Source: Candidatus Tremblayella phenacoccinincola
Lineage (GTDB): Bacteria > Pseudomonadota > Gammaproteobacteria > Burkholderiales > Burkholderiaceae
Assembly (NCBI RefSeq): GCF_002682985.1
Contig: NZ_MKGN01000007.1
Coordinates: forward strand, 1 to 13,128
Length of the DNA stretch: 13,128 nt
Reading direction: 5' to 3'
Shown: positions 194 through 12,865 of the stretch, piece by piece
How the letters are laid out: each line of letters begins with the position of its first letter
Position numbering within the stretch: the first letter of the stretch is position 1
The notes under the pieces: generated by a model
Seen by the model: only the letters and a program-made list of their open reading frames with translations
Database searches by the model: none
What the model was told of the DNA's origin: nothing
Position numbers and translations under genes: made by a program

Positions 194-1516
194 CTGAAGT
201 ACGCATCTATACCTATATTAGGAAGACCAAACGTTGGGAAAACCACCTTGTTCAACCGCATAATATGTCAACATGGGTCAATAGCATACTGTTTACCAGG
301 TCTTACTGCTGATAGTAGATATGGCATTGGAGCTCTACATCGTAAAAGGTTTGGACTGTACTATGTTCTGGATACTAACGGTTGGGATGTCTACAGTGCC
401 CCTACAGATCAACTTAAGAAGGTAGTTAGTCTTTCCAGTACGGTCATTCTTGTTTTAGATGCTAGAGAGGGTTTATCCACAGGAGACCTTAAGATCTTAA
501 ACTACCTTTCGAGGCTCGACAAGTCCGTTTACGTAGCAATAAACAAGGCAGACCCCAACTACGCTTTTATGAAGAAAGAGTTTAACCACATCGTCTGTAG
601 TTCTTTCTTCGTGTCTTCTGCACATAATATTGGAATTAAAAGAATGATGTACTACATCCTAAGGAATCTCAACCAAGCATTGAATGTTAAAAAAGAGCTA
701 GGAACCAGAAATAGTACCAGAGTAGCAATAGTTGGAAAACCAAATGTTGGTAAATCCACGTTAGTAAATACTTTAGTAGGCTATTACCGTTCGGTAGTGT
801 CTATCGTATCAGGCACCACAAAGGACCCAATCGAAGCTTCTCTTATGTTCAAAGACCATCAATACACAATGATTGATACTGGAGGTCTGAAAAGAAAAGG
901 AACCTCTGAATACTCTGTTGCTAGATGCGTAATCTTAAAAACACTGCAAACCATCCTAACTTCCAATATCGTATTATTGCTGGTTGATGCTCAGCTCGGT
1001 ATAGCAAAACATGACCTAACAGTTATTGACTTTGCACTCAGGAACAACAAAGCTCTAGCTGTTGGGTTTAACAAATGTGATACTGTTAAAGCTTTTAACG
1101 TTAAAGCTAAACTACCTGAACTACAAAGACTTAAAGAGCAGTTTCGTGTATGTGTTTTAGCATTCTCAGCTCTTAAACGGATTGGTCTAAACAGCCTTTT
1201 AGCAACACTACACAGACTAAACAACCTCGCTAACACAAAGATACCAACTATAAAGCTAAATAAGTTGATTGGGGATACTGCTCCTGCTCCAACCATTGAG
1301 GCTTCAACACCCACAACAGCCGCAACATCCGCAAAAGACAAGCTTAAGCTAAACTATATACACCAAGGCGGCTGTAGTCCTTTGGTTCTAGTAGCACATG
1401 GTTCAAACATTAATAAGCTAAACAAAGACTCAAAGAGACATATAAAAGAAACCATAACAGAAATGCTAGGTCTCAATAAGCTTCATATTCATATTAACTT
1501 AAGAAATGTACGTTAG
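194..1516 (+). CDS. der: GTPase Der (EngA): two tandem G domains plus a KH-like C-terminal domain
   Basis: The ORF track gives 248..1516 with a TTG start. G domain 2 has GKPNVGKSTLVN, DTGG and NKCD. G domain 1 has INKAD. The first P-loop, ILGRPNVGKTTLFN, is encoded at 215-256 and so lies partly upstream of TTG 248. The frame is open back to TAG 182-184 and contains no ATG, GTG or TTG. I therefore place the start at CTG 194, which is 9 codons before the G of GRPNVGK, the same spacing as in E. coli Der. The start is uncertain and the end is firm. Confidence 0.85.
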   Translation: MKYASIPILGRPNVGKTTLFNRIICQHGSIAYCLPGLTADSRYGIGALHRKRFGLYYVLDTNGWDVYSAPTDQLKKVVSLSSTVILVLDAREGLSTGDLKILNYLSRLDKSVYVAINKADPNYAFMKKEFNHIVCSSFFVSSAHNIGIKRMMYYILRNLNQALNVKKELGTRNSTRVAIVGKPNVGKSTLVNTLVGYYRSVVSIVSGTTKDPIEASLMFKDHQYTMIDTGGLKRKGTSEYSVARCVILKTLQTILTSNIVLLLVDAQLGIAKHDLTVIDFALRNNKALAVGFNKCDTVKAFNVKAKLPELQRLKEQFRVCVLAFSALKRIGLNSLLATLHRLNNLANTKIPTIKLNKLIGDTAPAPTIEASTPTTAATSAKDKLKLNYIHQGGCSPLVLVAHGSNINKLNKDSKRHIKETITEMLGLNKLHIHINLRNVR

Positions 1517-1572: not shown

Positions 1573-1929
1573 TCATACTAAACACTCTTGTACATTTAGA
1601 ATACCTTTAGCAAAAAGCTCCATGTAATAGCTTTGTGTGGTTTTGTTGTAGTTTAAGCTCTCCTTCAGAATAAGCCTATGGTACAATATTAAATCACAGC
1701 ACACCTGTTTGGAATTAGACCCAAGAGTGCAGAAGGTTAGGATGTTGCCAGGTAATCTGTTGCTTCTATGCTTTTTGTTTAAACGCTTCATCTCTCTAGC
1801 ACCTACATATCTTATGGTAATACCCACAGTATGCTGATCAACTAACTGAAGAGACTCTTTTGTTAACCTGACTGTTGGCAGAATACCAACTAAACCAACG
1901 TCTTCTTCAGACCCATACTGCATATACAT
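1573..1929 (-). CDS. ybeY: YbeY-like endoribonuclease homologue, probably degenerate or inactive (His triad missing)
   Basis: 118 aa. Recalled E. coli YbeY blocks match: GITIRYVGAREMKRLNKKHR vs [26 protein letters not shown] vs TNVLSF, and CDLILY vs GDLVIC. The region that should read HGxLHLxGYDH instead reads AKGILNVQECLV followed by a stop. Confidence 0.55.
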   Translation of the reverse strand: MYMQYGSEEDVGLVGILPTVRLTKESLQLVDQHTVGITIRYVGAREMKRLNKKHRSNRLPGNILTFCTLGSNSKQVCCDLILYHRLILKESLNYNKTTQSYYMELFAKGILNVQECLV

Positions 1930-2015
1930 AGGAGGTTCTCCTGTTATTCTGATTCGAGGTAATGCTATAATAGTTTTAATTATGATAAGCTAACCCTAAA
2001 CCAGATAAAGTCCAC

Positions 2016-2477
2016 ATGAAGAGCATATGTTCTAGTTACTCCTATAAAGTAGTAGTTATTATTGCTCGCTTTAATTACTTTATTAGTAAAACCATATTAA
2101 AAAGCGTAGTAAATACTATTAAGTTAATAGCAGCTATATATAATAAGCCTATAGATATTCTTTGGGTTTCCGGTTCTAATGAGATGCAGCTAATAGTAAA
2201 TAGTTTATTATATAATAAGAGACATAATATTATAATTCCAATAGGTACTATCATTCGAGGAGATACTATACATTTTAAAACAGTAGTTAGTAATTGTAAC
2301 TTAAGCTATAACAATATAACAATAAATAATAAGCTATCAATAACTTCAGGAATGCTAATAACAGATAATATTGATCAAGCTATTGAACGAACAGATCCTA
2401 AAGCTGGATATAAAGGAGCTGAGTCTATTGTTACTATATTAGAGTTAGTTAATATTATGACTAGCAGCTATATATAA
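2016..2477 (+). CDS. ribH: 6,7-dimethyl-8-ribityllumazine synthase
   Basis: 153 aa. IARFNYFI, WVSGSNE, GTIIRGDTIHF and QAIERTDPKAGYKGAE align with E. coli RibH (IARFNNFI, WVPGAYE, GTVIRGGTAHF, QAIERAGTKAGNKGAE). The gene is very AT-rich. Confidence 0.9.
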   Translation: MKSICSSYSYKVVVIIARFNYFISKTILKSVVNTIKLIAAIYNKPIDILWVSGSNEMQLIVNSLLYNKRHNIIIPIGTIIRGDTIHFKTVVSNCNLSYNNITINNKLSITSGMLITDNIDQAIERTDPKAGYKGAESIVTILELVNIMTSSYI

Positions 2478-2492
2478 AGACTAATCTAATAG

Positions 2493-3506
2493 CTAATGCA
2501 TAGATAGGTAATATAGGATATCGTAACATAGCTTTTTAATACCAATATGGTTTATAGATGAAGCTATATAGTATTTAGATTTCCATTCTATTCTTCTTAT
2601 AAACCTATCTACAAGTCTTATTAAAAAGGCCTTATCAGTTATTTTATCTACCTTATTAAAAACTAACCAACAATGCTTTTTTGAAGTTAAGCTATTATAT
2701 TGATATAGTTCATTATTGATAGTTTTAATAGCTTTATATATAAGCGACTCATTCATATGTTTTAAGTCAACAATATGTAATAATAGGCTACATCGATCTA
2801 ATTGTTTTAAAAGCCTAATGCCTAAACCAATACCATTAGAAGCGTCTTCAATTAAACCAGGAATATCAGCAATAATAAACCTGTTATTATATAGCTGAAC
2901 AACTCCTAAAACAGGAAAAGCTGTGGTAAAAGAATAACTAGCTACTTTTGATTTAGCTTTCGAAACAGAGTTAATAAAAGTAGACTTACCAGCATTTGGT
3001 AGTCCTAATATGCCTACATCAGCAGTTAACATTAGTTCCATATGAATATCACATGTTTCTCCAGGGATTCCTTTATTCTTTTGCAGCTTATTAGTTGTTT
3101 TAGTCTTTGAGTTGCCTATACCATGAAGACCACCTTTTGCTACTAAAACCTTTTGACCAACAAAAGACATATCAATAATAAGTAGGTTAGTTTTAATATC
3201 AGTAACTCTTGTTCCTAGGGGTGTTTTTATTAGCATATCTTTTCCTTTCTTTCCAGAACAACTATTTCTTTTACCATTAGTTCCGCTTTCAGCAATATAT
3301 ATCCTTTTGAGTTTAAAGCATAATAAGGTATTTATAGCTTTGTCAGAATATAACCAAACATCACCCCCATTTCCACCATCACCACCATCAGGTATTTTAT
3401 AGTGTATAGCATTCTCTTTTCGAAAAGCTACGCTTCCATTACCTCCAGTTCCAGCTTTGATTGAAATAATAGCTTCATCTATAAAGTTGGTATTTATGTT
3501 CATCAT
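2493..3506 (-). CDS. obg: GTPase Obg/CgtA
   Basis: 337 aa. It has the N-terminal glycine-rich Obg fold (FIDEAIISIKAGTGGNGSVAFRKE, DGGDGGNGGDVW). G-domain motifs are GLPNAGKSTFI, DIPGLIE and NKVD. The long acidic C-terminal tail of E. coli ObgE is absent. The gene is AT-rich. Confidence 0.92.
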   Translation of the reverse strand: MMNINTNFIDEAIISIKAGTGGNGSVAFRKENAIHYKIPDGGDGGNGGDVWLYSDKAINTLLCFKLKRIYIAESGTNGKRNSCSGKKGKDMLIKTPLGTRVTDIKTNLLIIDMSFVGQKVLVAKGGLHGIGNSKTKTTNKLQKNKGIPGETCDIHMELMLTADVGILGLPNAGKSTFINSVSKAKSKVASYSFTTAFPVLGVVQLYNNRFIIADIPGLIEDASNGIGLGIRLLKQLDRCSLLLHIVDLKHMNESLIYKAIKTINNELYQYNSLTSKKHCWLVFNKVDKITDKAFLIRLVDRFIRRIEWKSKYYIASSINHIGIKKLCYDILYYLSMH

Positions 3507-3591
3507 ATGTATATGCTGTCAATAACTATTAACTATGTCTAGAACCATACTAACTCTATTTCCTACCAAAAGCATTCTAAGTCTAGCTCCA

Positions 3592-4029
3592 TCAGGGTTT
3601 GGTTTCGAACTCTTCGTTAATACAAAAGGTTACTTTGAAGTTGGTCTTTGAGTTGATTGTGTTCCTGTTGATTGTGGCTCTTTTAACCCTAGCAAACGGA
3701 TAGCTGTACATTGTAACACCATTACCAACTTCTAACCCATATACCGCAGCTAACTGCACAAACCAAATCTTAACATTATGGGTTAACCCTGAAAAGCTAG
3801 AACTAAAAGCTAATGCTTCGTTGCTAATGGTAAGCTTTTGTACCGCTTTCCTACTGAGATTAATAACTAGCTCTTCCAGTCTTACTAGGCGGTCTGGTAA
3901 GTTATTGTTAACACTAGGCATAAATAATATACATGGTGTATATCTATTACTGATGCACCATTGGTATATCGAATACACGACCGTAGCTTCAATATTAAAT
4001 CTGCTGTACATTAGGTTAGCTCTATACAT
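3592..4029 (-). CDS. sspB: Stringent starvation protein B (ClpXP specificity adaptor) homologue
   Basis: 145 aa. VVYSIYQWCISNRYTPCILF aligns with E. coli LLRAFYEWLLDNQLTPHLVV. LVINLSRKAVQKLTISNEALAFSSSFSG..V..AAVYGLEVGNGVTM aligns with IVLNIAPRAVGNLELANDEVRFNARFGG..V..LAIYARENGAGTMF. The stretch upstream of ATG 4029 is purine-rich. An alternative ATG lies at 4011. Confidence 0.7.
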   Translation of the reverse strand: MYRANLMYSRFNIEATVVYSIYQWCISNRYTPCILFMPSVNNNLPDRLVRLEELVINLSRKAVQKLTISNEALAFSSSFSGLTHNVKIWFVQLAAVYGLEVGNGVTMYSYPFARVKRATINRNTINSKTNFKVTFCINEEFETKP

Positions 4030-4052: not shown

Positions 4053-5720
4053 TTAAACAGTAACTGAACCAAAGCTAGACTGGTTAACTACTTCAGCATA
4101 TCTTTTAAGAATGCCTCTTCTGTTCTCAACTATTGGTAACCTCCATAGCTTTCGTCGTTTCAATAGGACAGGGTTGCTCACATGTAGATGTATAAGAGCT
4201 TCTGATAAGTCAACTGTTATCAAGTCGTTGTTCTTAACCAAAGCAATAGGTCCTCCAACAAAGGCTTCAGGGGCAACATGTCCTACTACTATACCCCAAG
4301 AACCACCAGAAAACCTACCGTCAGTGATCAAACATACTTTATCTCCAAGGCCTTTACCAACTAAAGCAGAAGTAGGAGAGAGCATCTCAGGCATTCCAGG
4401 ACCCCCTTTAGGACCAAGGTACCTTATTATTACAATGTTGCCAGCTGTAACACTATCGTCCAATATTGACTTGGTTGTGCTCTCTTCGTCGTTGAATACT
4501 TTGGCTCTACCAGTAATGGATCTCCGTTTGACACCTAATGTTTTGGCTACTGCTCCAAACACTGCAAGATTACCTTTTAAAACTAGTAGATGTCCTTGTT
4601 GGTGTAATGGCTTGTTGATTGGTAGTATAACATTGTATATACATTGGGTAGCAAGCTTAATCCTATTGAGTTCTTCTCCTAAAGTACGTCCGGTAACGGT
4701 GGCACATGCTTTGTGCAGTAACTCTTGAGATGATAGTCTTTTCAAAACCTGAGGAATACCTCCAACGTTGTGTAGATCAGTAGTTGCATGGGTTCCTGAA
4801 GGCTTTAGGTTGCATGTCACTGGGGTTCTCTTTCTTATTGTTTCTATGTCGTCTAACGTTAATCTAACTCGAACGCTGTTTGCAATGGCAAGGTAGTGTA
4901 GAATAGCATTTGTTGAGCCACCAATGTACAATACAACAGTAATTGCGTTTTCAACTGCCTTTCTTGTAATCAGTATGGTTGGGTTAACACCTAATCTTAA
5001 GAGCTTCATTAAATACTTTGCAGACAGGCGAGAGGAACGGATCTTTTCAGTAGTTGGGTTTGCCATCGTTGAAGAATAAAACAGAGAGATACCTAACGAT
5101 TCGAATGAAGCACTCATAGTGTTTGCAGTATACATGCCTCCACAAGAACCTGTAGTAGGGCAAGAATGCTTCTCTATTTCTGTAAAGTCTTCATGTGTAA
5201 GAGCCTGTGTGTTGAGCTTTCCTACTGCTTCAAACGAAGAAACAATGGTAAGCGCCTTTCCTTTCCAGTAGCCAGGCAAGATAGTACCCCCATAGATATA
5301 TATGCTAGGAACGTTAACTCTTATTAGAGCCATCAAGCCACCAGGCAGATTCTTATCGCAGCCTCCCACCACAATAAGACCATCCATGCTTTGGCCTAGC
5401 GCACACACTTCTATACTATCTGCAATCACTTCCCTAGAGACTAAAGAATATCTCATTCCTGAAGTACCCATAGAAATGCCATCAGAAACAGTTGGAACTC
5501 CAAAAGACTGAGCTATGGTTCCATGTCGGTTAAGAAGGTTACTTACAGTGGTTGTTATCCTTTGTAGACCAGCATTACAAGGGGTAATAGTGGAATATCC
5601 GTTAGCTATACCAACTATTGGTTTCTTAAACTCCTTTAAGCTACATCCTAATGCGTAGAACATAGACCTGTTTGCAGTTCTAACATAACCTTTTGTAACG
5701 CTCTTGGAGTTGTACTTCAT
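4053..5720 (-). CDS. ilvD: Dihydroxy-acid dehydratase (short, ~555-aa subfamily)
   Basis: 555 aa. STITPCNAG, SDGISMGTSGMRYSLVSREVIADSIE, GGCDKNLPG, CPTTGSCGGMYTANTM, GGSTNAILHYLAIA, LGPKGGPGMPEML and ITDGRFSGGSWG are all present. The Fe-S ligand cysteines are retained. Confidence 0.97.
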   Translation of the reverse strand: MKYNSKSVTKGYVRTANRSMFYALGCSLKEFKKPIVGIANGYSTITPCNAGLQRITTTVSNLLNRHGTIAQSFGVPTVSDGISMGTSGMRYSLVSREVIADSIEVCALGQSMDGLIVVGGCDKNLPGGLMALIRVNVPSIYIYGGTILPGYWKGKALTIVSSFEAVGKLNTQALTHEDFTEIEKHSCPTTGSCGGMYTANTMSASFESLGISLFYSSTMANPTTEKIRSSRLSAKYLMKLLRLGVNPTILITRKAVENAITVVLYIGGSTNAILHYLAIANSVRVRLTLDDIETIRKRTPVTCNLKPSGTHATTDLHNVGGIPQVLKRLSSQELLHKACATVTGRTLGEELNRIKLATQCIYNVILPINKPLHQQGHLLVLKGNLAVFGAVAKTLGVKRRSITGRAKVFNDEESTTKSILDDSVTAGNIVIIRYLGPKGGPGMPEMLSPTSALVGKGLGDKVCLITDGRFSGGSWGIVVGHVAPEAFVGGPIALVKNNDLITVDLSEALIHLHVSNPVLLKRRKLWRLPIVENRRGILKRYAEVVNQSSFGSVTV

Positions 5721-5862: not shown

Positions 5863-6195
5863 CTACATTACAAAGGAAGAACCGCAATGACAAGTAGAAG
5901 CGGTACTTGGTGTATAGACTATATAATAAGACCCGTCAATACTACTTCTATAGTCAATGACTGCATTGTTAAGATACTGTAAGCTAATGCAGTCTACAAT
6001 GAAGCTAACTGTCCTTTTTACAAATGCTAAGTCATCCCCACATTGCTTCTCGACAAGTGCAAACATGTATTGAAGACCAGCACAGCCTCCCCCAAGAACA
6101 AATACTCTAAGCTTTAAGTTTGGGTTGCTTTTCTCTTGTATGACTTGGCACATATGTTTTGTTGAATTATCTGTGAAGGTTAACATACAGCTCAT
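5863..6195 (-). CDS. erpA: Iron-sulfur cluster insertion protein, A-type carrier (ErpA-like)
   Basis: 110 aa. [20 protein letters not shown] and the C-terminal STCHCGSSF match E. coli ErpA [20 protein letters not shown] and STCGCGSSF. The start ATG overlaps the rpsI stop (TAATG). Confidence 0.8.
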   Translation of the reverse strand: [110 protein letters not shown]

Positions 6196-6593
6196 TATCT
6201 TTTTGAGAACTGCTTTTGTTTCCTAGCCTTATGAAGACCACACTTTTTCCTTTCTACTTCTCTTGGGTCTCTAGTCAGAAATCCTTGTTTGGCAAGTGGT
6301 TGTTTAAATGATGAACTAATCTTAACGAGAGCTCTGGATAAACCAAGCCTGATAGAGGCAATCTGTCCACATTTACCACCACCTTTAACTGTTGCTTTAA
6401 GTAGAAAGGAGCGCTTAGTATCTAGTTGATGTATGAGTTGGTGTAACATATCGATATGTTTATGGTTTGTAAAGTAGGTATTCAGGAGTATTCCATTTAC
6501 CAGCATTACATTCTTAACGCTTTCCCTAATAAAGACTCTTGCGGTAGATCTTTTTCTTCGACCAGTTCCATAATACCAGATGTCCATGCCCAT
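6195..6593 (-). CDS. rpsI: 30S ribosomal protein S9
   Basis: 132 aa. YYGTGRRKRSTARVF, TVKGGGKCGQ and the C-terminal RDPREVERKKCGLHKARKQKQFSKR match bacterial S9. GGAG lies 6 nt upstream of the ATG. Confidence 0.97.
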   Translation of the reverse strand: MGMDIWYYGTGRRKRSTARVFIRESVKNVMLVNGILLNTYFTNHKHIDMLHQLIHQLDTKRSFLLKATVKGGGKCGQIASIRLGLSRALVKISSSFKQPLAKQGFLTRDPREVERKKCGLHKARKQKQFSKR

Positions 6594-6599
6594 TTAGTT

Positions 6600-6603
6600 C
6601 TCC
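6600..6603 (-). promoter_or_regulatory. Shine-Dalgarno sequence for rpsI
   Basis: The minus strand reads GGAG, then aactaa, then the ATG at 6593. Confidence 0.55.
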
Positions 6604-6751
6604 AGATGAGGGTGTCTGTTTGAGACAGGGTTTTTAACACTTCTTGTTTTGTTAGTCTTAAAGCTGTTAGAGAAAGATGGTTCTTGACTTGACTGATGGA
6701 TGTTGGGGTTAAAAGCAGTTATTCAAGGAGTACTATATATTCTAGAAGTCC

Positions 6752-7714
6752 CTAACATTCGACACAGACTCGCTTTTCGATGTATTGTGTTAGCTCCTGT
6801 GTAGCCTTTCTGAACGTATAGACCCCGTTTATTAGGTTTTTGTATGCGTTGACATTTTGTTTTAATGCTCTATAAAAGAACTCTTGACTCCAGATTGGTT
6901 TCAGGTCTATGGGTTGTTTGCGTATATGACTAACACTTAAAACAGATGTTGGTAGTAAACGATGTGTATTCTTGAGATCCAAGAAGATATCAGGACTTAG
7001 AGTTACATAGTCACACCCAGTTACAGATAGAGCTTGTTCAATAGACCTAAAGCTTGCTGCCATTAGTTTAGTGTTGTAGTTGTTATGTTTGAAATATTGA
7101 TACACTTGTTCAAGAAACTGAACACCTACATCTAAAGACTCATTCTGTTTTTTGCAGTTAGAGGTTAAGCTTGTGTACATATCAGAAACACGACCTACAA
7201 ATGGAGAAATGAGATATGCTTTTGATTCACCACACAAAACTGCTTGAGCTAAAGAAAATACCAACGTCATATTGCATCTTACGTTCTTTTTCCTAGCTAA
7301 CCTTAATACTTGAATTCCTTCCCAAGTAGCAGGCACCTTAATCAGAACTCTGTCCTGTATATTAAACGAATTGCACAACATTAAGACTTCAGCTATTTGT
7401 TCCATAGATTCTTCAACATTAAAAGCATAGTCAGCGTTCAATTCAATTGAAACTGTTCCAGGTATATATTTTAGGATTTCATTGCCAAGATGTACTAAGA
7501 TCTGGTTTATTATTTCAGAAGTAGTGTAAGCTTTGTATGTTGAAATTACCCCATCTATAAACGCTAAGCACTCTTTGTCTTTTGTTGCTTTTAGAATCAA
7601 CGAAGGGTTCGTAGTAACATCGTTCGGATGGAGCTTTGCTACTTCTAGAAAGTTTCCACTGTCCAAAGCAACTGTTGTGTATTTTTTTAGATACTCTAAA
7701 GCATTCATGTTCAT
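6752..7714 (-). CDS. tal: Transaldolase (TalB type)
   Basis: 320 aa. YTTVALDSGN, DVTTNPSLILKA, VLIKVPATWEGIQ (Schiff-base Lys context), CNMTLVFSLAQA, LISPFVGRV and ASFRSIEQ align with E. coli TalB. Confidence 0.93.
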   Translation of the reverse strand: MNMNALEYLKKYTTVALDSGNFLEVAKLHPNDVTTNPSLILKATKDKECLAFIDGVISTYKAYTTSEIINQILVHLGNEILKYIPGTVSIELNADYAFNVEESMEQIAEVLMLCNSFNIQDRVLIKVPATWEGIQVLRLARKKNVRCNMTLVFSLAQAVLCGESKAYLISPFVGRVSDMYTSLTSNCKKQNESLDVGVQFLEQVYQYFKHNNYNTKLMAASFRSIEQALSVTGCDYVTLSPDIFLDLKNTHRLLPTSVLSVSHIRKQPIDLKPIWSQEFFYRALKQNVNAYKNLINGVYTFRKATQELTQYIEKRVCVEC

Positions 7715-7825: not shown

Positions 7826-8383
7826 CTAAAGACTAAGCATTTCAGCTTCTTTACTTAAAGCTATATTATTAACTTTCTTTATAAGACAGTCAGTAATAGT
7901 TTGTATCTTTATTTGAAAAGCTTCCATATTATCTTTACTAAGCAGTTTCTTTTTAAATAGGTCTTTTAGTTTATTATTAAACATACGTCTTGTATTTCGT
8001 ATAGTAACTCTTACTTTCTCAGCTTCATTATGAACCAGCTTAACTAAACTATATCTATAGGTTTCAGAAAGGTCTGGAAATAAGATACGAATTAAGTTGG
8101 TTTCTAGATAAGGAACTAATCCTAAGTTAGCAGCAATAATGCTTTTATTTATTATTGGGTTTAGTGAGTTATCAAATGCAGTAATAATTACAGACTTTGT
8201 GGACTCTAAAGAAATAGTTGCTAGCTGACGTATAGATGTTAGCTTATTATTATACATTATTTTGATTCCATTAAGTAAGTCAGGAGAAGCTTTTCCTGTT
8301 CTATAGCTGTTAATAGTCCTTATAAAAGAATCTATATATTTACCTGCTTGAAGTTCATAGTCTTTACATATGTTTGTATTCAA
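7826..8383 (-). CDS. frr: Ribosome recycling factor
   Basis: 185 aa with a TTG start. (M)NTNICKDYE aligns residue for residue with E. coli MISDIRKDAE. RTGKASPDLLNGI, IRQLATISLE and VRVTIRNTRR also match. AGGAG lies 10 nt upstream. The gene is AT-rich. Confidence 0.93.
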   Translation of the reverse strand: MNTNICKDYELQAGKYIDSFIRTINSYRTGKASPDLLNGIKIMYNNKLTSIRQLATISLESTKSVIITAFDNSLNPIINKSIIAANLGLVPYLETNLIRILFPDLSETYRYSLVKLVHNEAEKVRVTIRNTRRMFNNKLKDLFKKKLLSKDNMEAFQIKIQTITDCLIKKVNNIALSKEAEMLSL

Positions 8384-8393
8384 GGTTATTGTG

Positions 8394-8398
8394 CTCCT
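8394..8398 (-). promoter_or_regulatory. Shine-Dalgarno sequence for frr
   Basis: The minus strand reads AGGAG, then 10 nt, then the TTG start at 8383. Confidence 0.6.
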
Positions 8399-8436
8399 AT
8401 TAAAACGAGGTTACAATTAACAATAGCCTGCCTACT

Positions 8437-9828
8437 TCAACTATAATTATCAAAACGAGACAGCTGGCCATTAAACCTTAATTTAATAGTTCCAGTTGGT
8501 CCATTTCGTTGCTTTCCAATAATAACTTCTGCTATTCCATGAAGACCTGTATTAACATATTCACGATACACTTCGTCTCGATATATAAACATTATTAGGT
8601 CAGCATCTTGTTCAATCGAACCAGACTCGCGTAGATCTGAATTAATTGGACGTTTATCTACTCTCTGTTCTAGGTTTCTATTTAGCTGTGAAAGTGCCAG
8701 TATAGGTACTTGTAGTTCTTTAGCTAAAGCTTTTAATGAACGTGAAACCTCAGCAATTTCTAATGATCTATTTTCTGATAATGACGGCACTTTCATTAGC
8801 TGCATATAGTCTACCATAATTAAACTAAGACCGTTCGCTTCTCGGTATATACGGTTAGCTCTTGTTCTTAAATCTGTATGTTTTAAGTCAGGAGAGTCGT
8901 CAATATATAGGTTCTTCTTTTTTAAGAGCATATTCATAGTATTAGAAAGCTTTGTCCAGTCGTTTCTATCCAACTGACCAGTCCTTATAGATGTTTGGTT
9001 AATCTTTGATAAAGAAGCTAATATTCTTATCATTATTTGGTCACTAGGCATTTCTAAACTAAATATTAACACTGGCTTATCTTCATTAACAACAGCATTT
9101 TCACATATATTTAAAGCTAAAGTTGTTTTACCCATTGAAGGTCTTGCCGCAATGATAATTAAGTCAGACTTTTGTAATCCACATGTTTTTATATCTAACT
9201 CATAATACCCACTAGAAATGCCAGTAATACCTTTTTTAGGACTTTTATATGCTTTTTCTATATTAATAACTGTTTTCCCTAATATATTATCAATAGGTTT
9301 AGGACCATTGGATTTATTAATTCTATACTCAGCTATTTGAGATAGTTTTGACTCAGCTATTGCCAATAACTCAGAGCTACTTCTTCCTTTCGGGTTATAG
9401 CTATTGTTAATTAGTTCTTGAGATGTTTTGATCAACTCTCGTTTTATTGCTCTATCTTTAACAATAGCGGCATATTCTAATATGTTGGCAGTGTTTGTAA
9501 TTGTAATGGGTTTATATAGAACAGCTAAATAAGAAGGACCACCAATCATAGTTAACTTACCTTTTTGTTCTAATGAGTCGGAAAGCGTAATAAGATCAAT
9601 TGGTTTATGGGAATCTAATAATAACTTCATTTCATTATATATTAGCCTATGGGTTCTTTTCATGAAGTCTTGCTCTGAAATAACAGATGCTATTTCATCC
9701 CATATATTATTATCTACCATTAGACAGCCTAATATTGTTTGTTCTGCTTCTAAAGAGTGTGGTAATGTCTTCATATATTCTTTTCTATGGATAGGTTCTA
9801 GCATATTATATACTTCTGGAACAGCCAA
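8437..9828 (-). CDS. dnaB: Replicative DNA helicase DnaB
   Basis: 463 aa. LPHSLEAEQTILGCLMVDN, Walker A AARPSMGKTTLALN, FSLEMP, LKALAKELQVPILALSQLNR, RESGSIEQDADLIMFIYRDE and IIGKQRNGPTG are present. The ORF-track start is TTG 9828. In-frame ATGs 8 and 18 codons downstream are also possible starts. The gene is AT-rich. Confidence 0.95.
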   Translation of the reverse strand: MAVPEVYNMLEPIHRKEYMKTLPHSLEAEQTILGCLMVDNNIWDEIASVISEQDFMKRTHRLIYNEMKLLLDSHKPIDLITLSDSLEQKGKLTMIGGPSYLAVLYKPITITNTANILEYAAIVKDRAIKRELIKTSQELINNSYNPKGRSSSELLAIAESKLSQIAEYRINKSNGPKPIDNILGKTVINIEKAYKSPKKGITGISSGYYELDIKTCGLQKSDLIIIAARPSMGKTTLALNICENAVVNEDKPVLIFSLEMPSDQIMIRILASLSKINQTSIRTGQLDRNDWTKLSNTMNMLLKKKNLYIDDSPDLKHTDLRTRANRIYREANGLSLIMVDYMQLMKVPSLSENRSLEIAEVSRSLKALAKELQVPILALSQLNRNLEQRVDKRPINSDLRESGSIEQDADLIMFIYRDEVYREYVNTGLHGIAEVIIGKQRNGPTGTIKLRFNGQLSRFDNYS

Positions 9829-9866: not shown

Positions 9867-10130
9867 TTAGTTATTACGAAGCACCATTCGAACATCTACC
9901 AGCTTTCTAGAAGCATTCCAGTAATATCTCACTACTCCTTTAGACAATGCGAACAAGGTGTGGTCTTTTCCAGCACCTACGTTTTTACCAGGGTGGATCT
10001 TTGTGCCTCTCTGACGTACAACAATGGAACCTGGCATTACTAAGACCCCACTGTAAGCTTTGATTCCTAGTCTCTTGGATCTCGAGTCTCTATTGTTCCT
10101 AGTAGCACCGCCTGCTTTCTTTTGGGCCAT
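9867..10130 (-). CDS. rpmA: 50S ribosomal protein L27
   Basis: 87 aa. [41 protein letters not shown] and GKDHTLFAL match bacterial L27. Confidence 0.96.
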
Positions 10131-10522
10131 GTTAGTTTCTGGGTAGTCTGAATGGTTGTCACAATAATTTCAGTACGTAGGCTTCTGTAACCTTGGCTCT
10201 TCATGTAATGCTTTCTTCTTTTGTGCTTTAGGATAGATATCTTTTTGGACTTGAAGTGTCTTGAAACCATTGCAACTACACGGACTCCTGATAATGTAGG
10301 TTGTCCAATGTGAACTTTGTTACAATGTATATGGAGGAGCACACTATGTAGATAAAACAGCCTACCTTCTGGTAAACCCATTCGATCTACGACCACTCTT
10401 TTGTTTACCTGTGTCTTATACTGCTTGCCGTTTAGCTTTATTATAGCGTAGTCTAACCTGTGTCCATAAATAGTCCCGCTCTGAAGTAGCATACATTTTA
10501 GTTGTTCTTCTTGTTCGTTCAT
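10067..10522 (-). CDS. rplU: 50S ribosomal protein L21 with atypical N- and C-terminal extensions
   Basis: The ORF is 151 aa, against roughly 103 aa for typical L21. The core [14 protein letters not shown]...[25 protein letters not shown] matches L21 (MYAIIKTGGKQYKV...KFRRRKHYRKQQGHRQ). The codon where the canonical ATG should be is GAC (10451-10453). Initiation must therefore occur at ATG 10492 or ATG 10522. The frame does not stop until 10067, which is 64 nt inside rpmA. Confidence 0.85.
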
Positions 10523-10531
10523 TGGAATTCA

Positions 10532-10598
10532 GGCTATAGGTTATAGGAGGAAGGTTTAGGTGGCTATAGGATATAGGAAGTAGGTTTAGGTGGCTAGG
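10532..10598. repeat. 30-bp tandem repeat, 2.2 copies, spanning the secA stop and the secA-rplU spacer
   Basis: Unit 1 is 10532-10561, ggctataggttataggaggaaggtttaggt. Unit 2 is 10562-10591, ggctataggatataggaagtaggtttaggt; aligning the two needs about 3 substitutions and a 1-nt indel. A partial third unit, ggctagg, occupies 10592-10598. Each unit contains an internal (c)tatagg sub-repeat. Confidence 0.9.
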
Positions 10599-12865
10599 CT
10601 TCCTACTTCTGACAGGCATAGAACATCGAGAACTAAATAAGCGACCATTCGTTTAAGTAGGTTCAAAGTGTTCTGAATGTATTGTTTGTGGGCTTTGTTG
10701 AAAGGTTGAAAGCTTAAGTTTATGCTCCAAAGAACGCTGTTTAAAAACCTAAGGTGATTCGTCCATATTGAATCTATTGAACCTAATAATAAGCATTTCT
10801 CCAGCTCTTTTCTCTTTTGTAATCCTGAGACTTCAATACAGGCCAAGTGATTTAGATTAACTAAGAACCTAAACCAAGATATCGAATATACAGTTCCTTT
10901 AAAAAGAGTTAAGCTCAATACTTTTAAGAACTGCTTTGGGGAATATATATAGCATTTGACTGGCCACTTCTTGGTTTTGAGTGCAAAGGCTTCTGACTGG
11001 CTTTTGGAGGTTAGCTTTCTTCTCAGCTTATGTAATGTAAGTCTTTGGAAATCCAAGATGTTGTTGAAGTTTGCTAATTGTGTTTTTTGGTATAAGCTTT
11101 TAGCTTGAGTTCTTTTTTGAATGGTTTCAATGGCTTGAGCAAACTTAGCTTGAGCAAGCTTACTTTCGGGATTTACGAGTAGCCTATTTAGCTGTCTGTC
11201 TTTTAAGGACACATAAAAACAGGAAGTACCAACATCTCCTTGTCTCCCAGACCTACCGATTAGCTGTACTTCAGGTTTTCTTAGATTATGCCTACCAATG
11301 CCGATAACTCTTAGACCGCCTAACCTTTTGGATTTGATGTATATTTGGTCTTTGGGTTGGTTGTGATCAAAGTATAATAAACCCCCTAACAAAATGTCTG
11401 TTCCTCTACATGCAATACAGGTCGTTATAGATAGTTTATTTGGTATTCCAGCGTTTGCAACAACTATAGGTTCTAACAGCTGGCTTTTAGCATTCAGTAT
11501 TTCGTGGGGAAACCCAATGTAGCTTAACATAACAGAAGTCCCTTCAGACTGTTCTACCGATTGTGTTCCAACTAAGGCTGGTTGACCACGTTTATAACAA
11601 CTCTGAATGTCTCTGATAACAGCTATACTCCTATCGCGAGGCGACATGTATATTCTGTCTGGCTCATCAACCCTGCCTTGTGGACTGTTTGTTGGAATAA
11701 CGACAGTTTTCAGATTGTACAGGTTTTTGAGCTCTTGTGTTTCGTTCGCAGTTCCTGTTATCCCTGATAGCCTACTATACATTCTAAAGTAAGGCTGGAG
11801 CACTACCTGAGATATAGCCTGGCTGTCTTTCCTTGCTTTGATTCCTTCTTTTGCTTCGACAGCCAGATGTATTCCATTGGACCAACGTTTGTTAGGTAGA
11901 AGTCTACCTGTTAAGTTAGCAATAATTATTGCTTCTCCGTTGCGGATAATATAGTCTCTATCTTTACTAACTGTTTTGTAAGTCTTTAGCATTACGCACA
12001 TCATAGTTATTAGAAGGTAGCTTTTGGACGTATATAGCTGTTTCCCGGTTCTAATGAGATTAGCGTTTACTAATAAGCTTTCAGTCTTAATAAAGCCTAG
12101 CTCAGTTAAATGCAGTTGTTTAGGTTGGTTGGAGTAATATAGGTTTCGGCTAGGAAAAGCTTTATTGGTTTCAAATACATATAACTTAATAAGCTTGTTC
12201 ACATATGTATAAAGGCTTGTTCTATAGTTAGAAGTGGAGGCAATGAAAGGTGTTCCAGCTTCATCTATTAAAATAGAGTCAACCTCATCAACTATCACTA
12301 TCGAGCAGGCTTGCTTTCTCCTTTGAACATATTCTTGATTCTTATATACCATGTGGTCTTGTATATAGTCAAATATATGTTCACTGAAAGAGACGTAAGT
12401 AATATCTGAATTGTATGTTGTTCTTTTTGAACTGTTAGCCAGGTTTGCAACAGCTTTACCTACTGAGGTTCCTAAGTACTCAAATACGATCTGTGTTAGG
12501 ACACTGTCCCTTTTTGTAAGATGGTCACTTGGAACTACAATGAGCACTCCTGAGTTGAACAGTGAGCAGGCAAAAGAAGCAACTGCAACTGCTAATGTTT
12601 TACCTTCTCCTGTCTTCATTTCCACTGCTTTGCCACTACATAATGCAAGTCCTCCTAGTAACTGAGTATCATGTAGTTTAAACCCTATTAACCTACAACA
12701 AGTCTCTTTAAACAACCCAAAAGCATATGGGAGAGCTTTGTTAAAAGATACGTTTGATTTCAAGTGAAGCTTAAGCACATTCGTTTTAAGTTTGAATGCT
12801 ATGCCTTTCAGGTATTTAAAGTAAGAACCTAACCCAAGGATTCTCGTTGTATATTCTTTTAGCAT
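10586..12865 (-). CDS. secA: Preprotein translocase ATPase SecA (shortened and derived)
   Basis: 759 aa. MKTGEGKTL (Walker A), VDEVDSILIDEAGTPFI (DEAD region), GRSGRQGDVG and DSIWTNHLRFL are present. The protein ends just after the helical scaffold domain. The C-terminal linker and zinc finger are absent. Confidence 0.95.
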   Translation of the reverse strand: MLKEYTTRILGLGSYFKYLKGIAFKLKTNVLKLHLKSNVSFNKALPYAFGLFKETCCRLIGFKLHDTQLLGGLALCSGKAVEMKTGEGKTLAVAVASFACSLFNSGVLIVVPSDHLTKRDSVLTQIVFEYLGTSVGKAVANLANSSKRTTYNSDITYVSFSEHIFDYIQDHMVYKNQEYVQRRKQACSIVIVDEVDSILIDEAGTPFIASTSNYRTSLYTYVNKLIKLYVFETNKAFPSRNLYYSNQPKQLHLTELGFIKTESLLVNANLIRTGKQLYTSKSYLLITMMCVMLKTYKTVSKDRDYIIRNGEAIIIANLTGRLLPNKRWSNGIHLAVEAKEGIKARKDSQAISQVVLQPYFRMYSRLSGITGTANETQELKNLYNLKTVVIPTNSPQGRVDEPDRIYMSPRDRSIAVIRDIQSCYKRGQPALVGTQSVEQSEGTSVMLSYIGFPHEILNAKSQLLEPIVVANAGIPNKLSITTCIACRGTDILLGGLLYFDHNQPKDQIYIKSKRLGGLRVIGIGRHNLRKPEVQLIGRSGRQGDVGTSCFYVSLKDRQLNRLLVNPESKLAQAKFAQAIETIQKRTQAKSLYQKTQLANFNNILDFQRLTLHKLRRKLTSKSQSEAFALKTKKWPVKCYIYSPKQFLKVLSLTLFKGTVYSISWFRFLVNLNHLACIEVSGLQKRKELEKCLLLGSIDSIWTNHLRFLNSVLWSINLSFQPFNKAHKQYIQNTLNLLKRMVAYLVLDVLCLSEVGSLAT

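Follow-up and report, generated by a model that had tools for sequence, protein, structure and literature searches.

Genes in the window

The window is the whole 13,128-nt stretch of DNA that we analysed, and it carries 14 genes. Four of these, in two separate pairs, form a class with low GC content at third codon positions (GC3). The first pair is ribH (6,7-dimethyl-8-ribityllumazine synthase; 2016..2477, + strand) and obg (the cgtA/obgE GTPase; 2493..3506, - strand), which lie tail-to-tail with 15 nt between the gene ends. Both proteins score above the cut-offs of their family models: RibH has 94.6 bits against TIGR00114 (cut-off 84.6), and Obg has 360 bits against TIGR02729 (cut-off 280). 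The second pair, frr and dnaB (7826..9828, - strand), makes up another low-GC island, 4 kb from ribH-obg.

The other ten genes form the backbone. To the left of ribH-obg are der (engA; 194..1516, + strand) and ybeY (1573..1929, - strand), and to the right are sspB (the ClpXP adaptor; 3592..4029, - strand) and ilvD (4053..5720, - strand), which encodes the short, 555-amino-acid type of IlvD. The rplU-rpmA pair is at 9867..10522 (- strand). Der probably starts at a CTG codon (194-196), and its P-loop is encoded ahead of the first start codon of a canonical kind. YbeY and SspB match the NCBIfam models of those names, with scores below the cut-offs; Pfam PF04386 is recorded for the orthologue of sspB in PSOL, the second published chimeric genome.

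The window very probably comes, as one contig, from the chimeric genome of strain PPER of the mealybug endosymbiont Candidatus Tremblaya phenacola, which is the source that the preliminary description had guessed. Its Obg and RibH match Ca. Tremblaya phenacola proteins at NCBI with 100% identity, and its gene order is that of PPER locus tags TPPER_00058 to TPPER_00069. As summarized in a review (PMC5664097), Gil et al. 2018 (ISME J 12:124) described at least 80 genes of gammaproteobacterial origin in PPER, with distinct GC content and codon usage, and Bai et al. 2024 (PMC11014885) found the same chimerism in PSOL. The gamma-derived share of genes is given as 46% in PPER and 45% in PSOL (PMC5664097, PMC11014885). 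It is thus already known that the genome is a beta/gamma mosaic and that ribH, dnaB, and neighbouring genes are assigned to the gammas, as the preliminary description had expected if the source was PPER. The published labels agree with the window for ribH, ilvD, erpA, rpsI, tal, dnaB, rpmA, rplU, and secA. Separately, we noticed a few errors of annotation in one published table, which may be of use to specialists.

Two classes of base composition

The GC content of 2016-3506 is 0.294 (29.4%), versus 0.375 (37.5%) in the rest of the window (chi-square p = 1e-9). This island ranks 53rd lowest in GC among 11,638 windows of equal length, and when 60-nt blocks were permuted, none of 5,000 permutations gave a 1,500-nt stretch with GC as low. 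The preliminary description had counted G+C by hand for seven 60-nt lines, and all seven counts were exact.

The cleanest signal of composition is GC3, not raw GC. The low class is ribH (0.182), obg (0.192), frr (0.194), and dnaB (0.218), and the other ten genes range from 0.316 to 0.409 (der is at 0.34, ybeY at 0.395, and sspB at 0.40). GC3 is heterogeneous across the 14 genes (p = 2e-13), and this heterogeneity disappears within the classes (p = 0.71 for the low class and 0.55 for the high class). Pooled GC3 is 0.20 in the low class versus 0.35 in the high class (p = 7e-19), and codon choice differs between the classes in nearly every synonymous family. The preliminary description had named a single distribution of GC3, or the grouping of RibH and Obg with the class of IlvD, L27, and SecA, as evidence against two ancestries. 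We found two classes of GC3 and of codon usage, and Obg is placed outside of IlvD's class (see below). A strand effect is ruled out as the cause of the low GC, because GC3 is low both for ribH (+ strand) and for obg (- strand).

Raw GC is less regular. In obg it is about 0.33 in the 5' two-thirds and about 0.26 in the 3' third, while GC3 stays at 0.18-0.21 along the whole gene. Because of this unevenness, a scan of raw GC over intervals gave 1966-2785 as the best fit. We used this interval scan in place of binary change-point segmentation, which found no change point in the GC of the window because the islands are internal.

Ancestry of the low-GC genes

The best 120 homologues of Obg outside of Tremblaya are all from Gammaproteobacteria (120/120), and the closest by score are free-living or gut bacteria (Orbaceae, Moellerella, Musicola, and Yersinia). 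Similarly, in tblastn, Obg scores 251-270 bits against enterics versus 197 against Neisseria. The flanks of L27 loci yielded obg genes of beta-, gamma-, and alphaproteobacteria. Our trees are neighbour-joining trees from corrected p-distances and include a small number of betas, of which two are reliable references for Obg. Obg lies inside the gammas of the Vibrio/Enterobacterales/Pasteurellales/Orbales group with 98% bootstrap support, and also with 98% after Dayhoff-6 recoding; it grouped with the betas in just 1-3% of replicates. We conclude from these scores and trees that obg is gamma-derived, and this assignment was made independently of the published labels.

The Obg motifs that the preliminary description quoted are present in the window, and the E. 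coli motifs that it gave (GGDVWMEAD and GLGIRFLKHLERC) are correct. The betaproteobacterial motif is GLGYQFLRHLHR in a Burkholderia sp. MAG and GLGHKFLKHLQR in Neisseria.

Within the Enterobacterales, Obg adjoins Buchnera, Pantoea edessiphila, and other reduced symbionts, with support of 31-60%, and it is not sister to Doolittlea, which is the sole Sodalis-allied reference in the tree. Obg is pulled towards the reduced symbionts, and therefore the tree does not recover the Sodalis-allied donor that is given in the literature.

RibH is strongly diverged, with 34-41% identity to any homologue. A word-indexed search found only 7 matches, owing to this divergence, and a full HMMER search found 150 matches, all at 35% identity or below except for one close relative at 92%. 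The best named matches are from endosymbionts in the Enterobacteriaceae (40-41% identity), and in tblastn, RibH scores 84-100 bits against enteric RibE versus 39 bits against Neisseria. This ranking of scores, with the class assigned from scores and not from a tree, supports a gamma origin for ribH, and ribH has a gamma label in the literature for both PSOL and PPER.

In the second island, Frr scores 115-128 bits against enterics versus 80-87 against betas, and the C-terminus of DnaB is 74% identical to that of E. coli versus 51% for a Burkholderiales MAG. RibH and Frr are both highly diverged (34-40% identity to E. coli). These contrasts of score or identity support an enteric-type gammaproteobacterial ancestry for RibH, Frr, and DnaB. 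The published labels also call dnaB gamma, as well as TPPER_00065, which corresponds to frr by position.

Ancestry of the backbone

The best tblastn matches of IlvD are from Ralstonia (57% identity), and IlvD is just 31% identical to the 616-amino-acid IlvD of E. coli. This fits the preliminary description, which had called it the Burkholderiales type of about 557 amino acids and not the enterobacterial type. Der scores 201-204 bits against Ralstonia and 201 against Neisseria, versus 161-169 against E. coli, Klebsiella, and Proteus. The only tblastn match of YbeY with E < 0.001 is from Comamonas (Burkholderiales; 45 bits), and YbeY has no match in an enteric chromosome at E ≤ 1. By these comparisons, made against references other than Tremblaya PAVE and princeps, a beta-like and clearly non-enteric affinity is seen for IlvD, Der, and YbeY, and the published labels for genes of this class, ilvD among them, are beta.

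The other backbone proteins that we compared are less informative. SecA scores equally against enterics and Neisseria, and is too diverged to tell beta from gamma. Besides the PSOL orthologue and a weak match in Legionella, homologues of SspB were found only in Logan assemblies (one on a contig of SRR17390676), and a word-indexed search with a chimeric query of YbeY and SspB gave 2 matches, as these proteins are too diverged. L27 is so conserved that a scan of genome contigs with it returned 80 loci, mostly from Alphaproteobacteria and none from Tremblaya. In a tree of concatenated L21 and L27, the window grouped with enteric gammas in 0 of 500 replicates, and its long branch joined Sulfurimonas; we take this tree to rule out only an enteric origin, and not to place the pair among the betas. 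For SspB, the beta label is based on GC3; for SecA, L21, and L27, it has both GC3 and the published table behind it.

Gene order near rplU-rpmA also bears on obg. In the Burkholderia (L035) and Neisseria (L050) loci, obg is directly after rpmA, and it is near rplU-rpmA in E. coli, Orbaceae, Basfia, and Vibrio as well. Unlike in its beta relatives, obg is absent after this pair in the window, and the position where betas have obg is occupied by the gamma dnaB.

Junctions between the classes

The order der-ybeY-ribH-obg-sspB-ilvD and homologous junction spacers recur in PSOL (GCA_009805595.3) and in a Logan assembly of SRR17390676, which we did not find mentioned in the literature that we searched. 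Nucleotide divergence among the three strains is 5-6% and 11-13%. Alignment shows that both the left spacer (ybeY/ribH; 1930..2015) and the right spacer (obg/sspB; 3507..3591) are homologous in PPER, the SRR17390676 strain, and PSOL. Because these junctions are common to three independent assemblies, both classes of genes are on one DNA molecule, and the mosaic predates the split of these lineages.

The ORF coordinates match the lengths of 86 and 85 nt that the preliminary description gave for the two spacers, and across the window the classes switch in spacers of 38 to 111 nt. Its claim that the switch occurs inside the spacers, exactly at gene boundaries, stands if ancestry is considered gene by gene. 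It does not follow from composition alone: the GC of the spacers is intermediate (0.35 on the left and 0.33 on the right), so composition cannot locate the switch within them. The left spacer carries a conserved TGCTATAAT at 1963-1971, which might be a promoter; a promoter and terminator scan of the island was at chance level.

The orthologous locus in PSOL has its genes in exactly this order, falls into the same two classes of GC3, and differs from the window by 11-13% of nucleotides. Its junction spacers are longer, it has an extra ORF of 122 amino acids between tal and rpsI, and its block runs on into clpX-lon, where the window's contig ends.

Proposed origin

We propose, with a probability of roughly 0.9, that the backbone derives from a betaproteobacterium related to Burkholderiales and that ribH, obg, frr, and dnaB derive from an enterobacterial-type gammaproteobacterium that was merged into it. 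This is in line with the two ancestries of the preliminary description, which had ribH and obg as gamma within a beta backbone: the Obg tree, the RibH scores, and the beta-like IlvD, Der, and YbeY all agree with it. The genome of the gammaproteobacterium would have merged with that of Tremblaya, after which one copy of each redundant gene would have been lost, and deletions and rearrangements would have left the beta and gamma survivors interleaved gene by gene. The beta obg that is expected after rplU-rpmA would be among the losses, and the gamma obg would have been kept beside the gamma ribH (these two genes are 2.9 Mb apart in E. coli). The low GC, which is purest at third codon positions, would reflect a stronger AT bias in the donor, which the mutation regime now common to both classes would not yet have erased.

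That whole genomes fused, rather than that genes were transferred serially, and that the donor was Sodalis-allied, are taken from the literature; 13 kb cannot tell fusion from serial gene replacement. It seems unlikely to us that several independent transfers replaced single beta genes. In the window, the gamma genes do lie in two small blocks, apart from one another and with 2 genes in each, and ribH does not adjoin obg in E. coli, so the window by itself shows no large colinear segment from a donor. Against this, the reported gamma shares of nearly half of the genes would be hard to reach by piecemeal gain in an intracellular genome of about 200 kb. Also, one value of GC3 fits all four gamma genes (p = 0.71), as expected from a single donor, and the islands lack tRNAs, integrases, and flanking repeats. 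More specifically, Rfam and tRNA scans were empty, with no tRNA genes found, no repeats bracketing 2016-3506 were found, and, apart from shadows of the 14 genes, all ORFs of at least 80 amino acids are housekeeping, with no integrase or mobility gene among them. For lack of tRNAs, repeats, and mobility genes we rejected a mobile element or integrative genomic island.

Two other explanations would dispense with a second ancestor or with the mosaic itself. If all the genes had one ancestry, and ribH, obg, frr, and dnaB were simply faster-evolving or less constrained genes that decayed further towards AT, then long branches or shared composition could have drawn them towards AT-rich enteric symbionts and so given them their gamma look. 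The position of Obg beside Buchnera, Pantoea edessiphila, and other reduced symbionts is typical of attraction, and the low identity of RibH and Frr to E. coli would fit as well. However, the best-scoring relatives of Obg are free-living or gut gammas, its placement survives Dayhoff-6 recoding, and divergence between the PPER and PSOL proteins is no higher in the low-GC class. Also, free-living enterics outscore Neisseria and Ralstonia for Obg, RibH, and Frr, and the reverse holds for Der and IlvD by the same method. Single ancestry is largely refuted and, in our view, very improbable. We give even less credence to a chimeric assembly, in which reads from Tremblaya and from a separate gamma co-symbiont were joined. 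In mealybugs of the sister subfamily, Tremblaya does harbour a gammaproteobacterium (PMC11014885). But the same interleaving and homologous spacers in three independent assemblies of diverged strains, one of them the hybrid long-read assembly of PSOL (PMC11014885), rule out misassembly for practical purposes, and every class switch lies in a short spacer.

Under the merger that we favour, the low-GC class might still be changing. Along the branches of PPER and of the SRR17390676 strain, 33 substitutions in ribH and obg went from AT to GC versus 14 from GC to AT, and the beta-class neighbours of these genes are stationary (51 versus 55). Tentatively, the gamma genes may be drifting slowly towards the composition of the backbone (amelioration). 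That the gap in composition is measurably closing from the gamma side, and is not a frozen relic, is a possibility that we consider less likely than not.

Relation to known systems and implications

The closest known system is the "collage" of PPER itself, as described for Gil et al. 2018: it is the same organism, with gamma genes that have their own GC and codon signature interleaved with beta genes, and we see no substantive difference from the window. The nested symbioses of the Tremblaya princeps/Moranella type in the Pseudococcinae involve, by the accounts in PMC5664097 and PMC11014885, the same partnership of a beta with a Sodalis-allied gamma and the same division of labour. There, however, the two genomes are in separate cells, one inside the other, and in the window genes of both share one DNA molecule. 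Classical genomic islands from horizontal transfer resemble the islands in the window in that the composition of such blocks is atypical, their phylogenetic signal is foreign, and their edges coincide sharply with gene boundaries. The cargo of classical islands is accessory, whereas that of the islands in the window consists of core housekeeping genes standing in for native copies that were lost.

This locus is a remarkable case in which two genomes from different classes of bacteria have merged in a tiny symbiont and their genes have kept their ancestral compositions. Our finding is a correct rediscovery and not a new phenomenon, so its value is as a positive control: the mosaic, its boundaries at the level of genes, the probable organism, and a probable earlier publication could all be recognized from the raw sequence alone. 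For specialists in the evolution of symbiont genomes, it adds a tree that places obg independently, a third lineage in which the junctions recur, and a hint that GC is rising in the gamma genes. If the gap is closing genome-wide, it would reveal the mutational equilibrium that the parts of the fused genome share. Together with the third, undescribed chimeric lineage, in which the junctions recur, this would, if true, offer a way to date the fusion from how fast the compositions of the two classes converge.

Gene content and identity of the locus

The 13,128 bp of the window hold 14 closely spaced housekeeping genes. On the forward strand are der (listed at 248-1516, with a probable start at 194) and ribH (2016-2477). 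On the reverse strand are ybeY (1573-1929), obg (2493-3506), sspB (3592-4029), ilvD (4053-5720), erpA (5863-6195), rpsI (6195-6593), tal (6752-7714), frr (7826-8383), dnaB (8437-9828), rpmA (9867-10130), rplU (10067-10522), and secA (10586-12865).

Proteins at NCBI that are named Candidatus Tremblaya phenacola are 100% identical to the Obg and RibH of the window. Bai et al. 2024 (PMC11014885) tabulate, in their supplement, the following locus tags for strain PPER: TPPER_00058 (ribH), 00061 (ilvD), 00062 (erpA), 00063 (rpsI), 00064 (tal), 00066 (dnaB), 00067 (rpmA), 00068 (rplU), and 00069 (secA). This order agrees with the window gene for gene, so the window is very probably a PPER contig, as the preliminary description had guessed. 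Similarly, the tags peg2-peg14 of strain PSOL agree with its orthologous locus (L001 in GCA_009805595.3).

Four entries in the table of PMC11014885 appear to be annotation slips. TPPER_00065, entered as another copy of rpsI (gamma), occupies the position of frr; TPPER_00058 is entered as riboflavin synthase (K00793) but is actually lumazine synthase; tal is entered as dTDP-6-deoxy-L-talose 4-dehydrogenase but is actually transaldolase (TIGR00874); and rplU carries a gamma label in PSOL but a beta label in PPER, despite 84% identity between the two proteins.

We also note several features of individual genes. The P-loop of the first GTPase domain of Der (GRPNVGKT, 221-244, within the region 182-260) precedes the first canonical start codon (TTG at 248), and positions 194-196 are CTG in the window and ATG in PSOL, so der either has a rare CTG start codon or is missing its first P-loop. 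The rplU frame encodes 151 amino acids, versus about 103 in a normal L21, and is extended at both the N- and the C-terminus; the C-terminal extension runs 64 nt into the start of rpmA (10067-10130), as is also seen in PSOL (L001 2379-2442). In the rplU-secA spacer, a 30-nt unit is duplicated in tandem (10532-10591; the copies are 90% identical). Between tal and rpsI, PSOL has a 122-amino-acid ORF with no Pfam hit (L001 6311-6679), versus only a 158-nt spacer in the window (6594-6751).

Two classes of genes by composition

The preliminary description proposed, from hand counts of G+C, that a low-GC island with ribH and obg (2016-3506) is set in a backbone of another composition. All seven of its counts per 60 nt were exact on recount, and its lengths for the flanking spacers (86 and 85 nt) are also right. 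The GC content is 29.4% in the island versus 37.5% in the rest of the window (p = 1e-9), and none of 5000 permutations of 60-nt blocks gave a 1.5-kb stretch as low in GC. GC at third codon positions (GC3) is 0.182 for ribH and 0.192 for obg. A second low-GC island (7826-9828) has similar values (frr, 0.194; dnaB, 0.218), and the remaining ten genes range from 0.316 to 0.409. GC3 is heterogeneous across the 14 genes (chi-square 89, p = 2e-13) but not inside either class (p = 0.71 and 0.55), so the genes form two discrete classes and not a gradient or a single distribution, in line with the earlier proposal.

Codon choice differs between the classes in nearly all synonymous families. For instance, the share of C-ending codons in the low class versus the higher class is 0.28 versus 0.65 for Asn, 0.13 versus 0.47 for Tyr, and 0.04 versus 0.31 for Phe. 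Both junction spacers are intermediate in GC. A scan for intervals by raw GC ranked 1966-2785 first and 2796-3580 only third, because raw GC is uneven inside obg (0.33, 0.34, and 0.26 by thirds); its GC3 is constant, at 0.18-0.21.

Ancestry of the low-GC genes

Outside of Tremblaya, the best 120 homologs of Obg are all from Gammaproteobacteria (46-51% identity), including Orbaceae, Pantoea, Erwinia, Moellerella, Musicola, Yersinia, Pasteurellaceae, and Vibrio. We built a neighbor-joining tree of 44 Obg sequences (329 columns), including two from T. phenacola; the references included loci from a genome scan for L27 with obg in their flanks (beta-, gamma-, alpha-, epsilon-, and deltaproteobacteria). 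Both T. phenacola proteins fall inside a group of Vibrionales, Enterobacterales, Pasteurellales, and Orbales, and the split between this group and everything else has 98% bootstrap support (also 98% with Dayhoff-6 recoding). Obg grouped with betas in 1-3% of replicates. Within the gammas, it clusters with other reduced symbionts, weakly supported (31-60%) and probably through attraction, so the Obg tree neither confirms nor contradicts the published Sodalis-allied donor.

RibH is too divergent for a tree (its identity is 34% with E. coli RibE and 40-41% with the enterobacterial endosymbionts of Plateumaris beetles), so its class rests on contrasts in tblastn scores. A like-for-like contrast was possible because PLSDB includes whole chromosomes labelled as plasmids. 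RibH scored 84-100 bits against enteric RibE, 63-85 against other gammas, 61-75 against Firmicutes, and 39 (E = 0.1) against Neisseria gonorrhoeae. For Obg, enterics gave 251-270 bits and Neisseria 197. The genes of the second island are also gamma-like: the scores of Frr are 115-128 bits for enterics but 80-87 for Ralstonia and Neisseria, and overall DnaB shares 61% identity with E. coli (at the C-terminus, 74% to E. coli versus 51% to a Burkholderiales MAG). The gamma ancestry proposed for ribH and obg is thus borne out, and the motifs of Obg are indeed E. coli-like rather than beta-like.

The PLSDB records NZ_CP119142.1, NZ_OL790811.1, CP125156.1, and others are whole chromosomes or carry core genes; they include chromosomes of N. 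gonorrhoeae (2.17 Mb), Proteus mirabilis (4.08 Mb), and Klebsiella (5.37 Mb), as well as 2.2-2.3-Mb Ralstonia records with core genes. These were handy references here but are a trap in plasmid analyses.

Ancestry of the backbone

IlvD is of the short type (555 amino acids) and is 31% identical to the 616-amino-acid E. coli enzyme. Its best match is from Ralstonia (57%), slightly above alphaproteobacterial and cyanobacterial enzymes, and short-type gamma enzymes are well behind (46-47%). Der scored higher against Ralstonia and Neisseria (201-204 bits) than against E. coli, Klebsiella, and Proteus (161-169). The only match to YbeY at E < 0.001 is a Comamonas (Burkholderiales) gene; no enteric chromosome matched. 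In a tree of L21 and L27, the window grouped with enteric gammas in 0 of 500 replicates; betas are nearest by distance, and the topology has no resolution. SecA is equidistant from all references compared, and the search for homologs of SspB gave no informative relatives, so the beta label of these two comes from GC3, with the published table as a second basis for SecA. Among the genes that could be tested, the backbone is clearly non-enteric and beta-like. The beta backbone of the preliminary description therefore stands for IlvD, Der, and YbeY; L21 and L27 are only non-enteric.

In both the Obg and L21/L27 trees, two MAG contigs labelled Janthinobacterium lividum and Thiotrichales (L034 and L076) group with Alphaproteobacteria and are probably mis-binned.

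The published table labels ribH and dnaB as gamma and ilvD, erpA, rpsI, tal, rpmA, rplU, and secA as beta (PMC11014885), and the affinities of the backbone are consistent with this. The mosaic is the same phenomenon as the beta-gamma "collage" of PPER (Gil et al. 2018, as summarized in PMC5664097), which Bai et al. 2024 (PMC11014885) later extended to PSOL. The reading of two ancestries is correct, supported by GC3, the Obg tree, and the tblastn contrasts, and, as the preliminary description cautioned, already known.

Conservation of the mosaic

PSOL (84% identity for Obg; 11-13% nucleotide divergence) and a Logan contig from SRR17390676 (contig 57159, 5,288 bp; 94-95% nucleotide identity to the window, or 5-6% divergence) both keep the gene order der-ybeY-ribH-obg-sspB-ilvD, the two GC3 classes, and the junction spacers. 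The SRR17390676 contig represents a third chimeric T. phenacola-like lineage, with homologous junction spacers. In the ybeY-ribH spacer, TGCTATAAT (1963-1971, 45 nt upstream of the ribH start) is invariant in all three strains; it has the form of an extended -10 element and is a putative promoter.

A co-assembly of two organisms is excluded, as the same junctions recur in the two other assemblies; by the same token, the interleaving of beta and gamma genes predates the split of the three lineages. Strand bias from replication or transcription is not the cause of the low GC3, since ribH and obg are on opposite strands and both are low. We also rejected a mobile island, since scans for tRNAs, Rfam families, mobility genes, and bracketing repeats found none.

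With PSOL as the outgroup, we used parsimony to polarize substitutions on the PPER and SRR17390676 branches. In ribH and obg, 33 changes were AT-to-GC versus 14 GC-to-AT (binomial p = 0.008, or p = 0.013 once the parsimony bias was simulated, which controls for it partly). At third positions, there were 21 versus 7 (simulated p = 0.06). The four beta-class neighbors look stationary (51 versus 55). The gamma genes may be drifting slowly upward towards the composition of the backbone, but with few data from just 1.5 kb, this is a tentative lead.

Probable origin of the arrangement

The ribH-obg arrangement is derived: ribE and obgE are 2.9 Mb apart in E. coli and the relatives keep obg by rplU-rpmA (directly following in betas, close behind in gammas). 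In the window, gamma dnaB-frr come after the beta pair rplU-rpmA, and the one obg present is of gamma type and lies 6 kb away, as would be expected if two gene sets merged and then underwent loss of redundant copies and rearrangement. Following the literature, a Tremblaya genome would have fused with that of a Sodalis-allied gamma symbiont. One copy of each redundant gene would then have been lost, with ribH and obg as surviving gamma copies, and their low GC3 would be inherited from a more AT-biased donor and not yet erased. The gamma-derived genes are intact, as Obg and RibH score above their curated NCBIfam cut-offs and both genes remain conserved in each of the three lineages after their split. 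Such genes make up about 45% of the genes in PPER and PSOL, according to PMC5664097 and PMC11014885.
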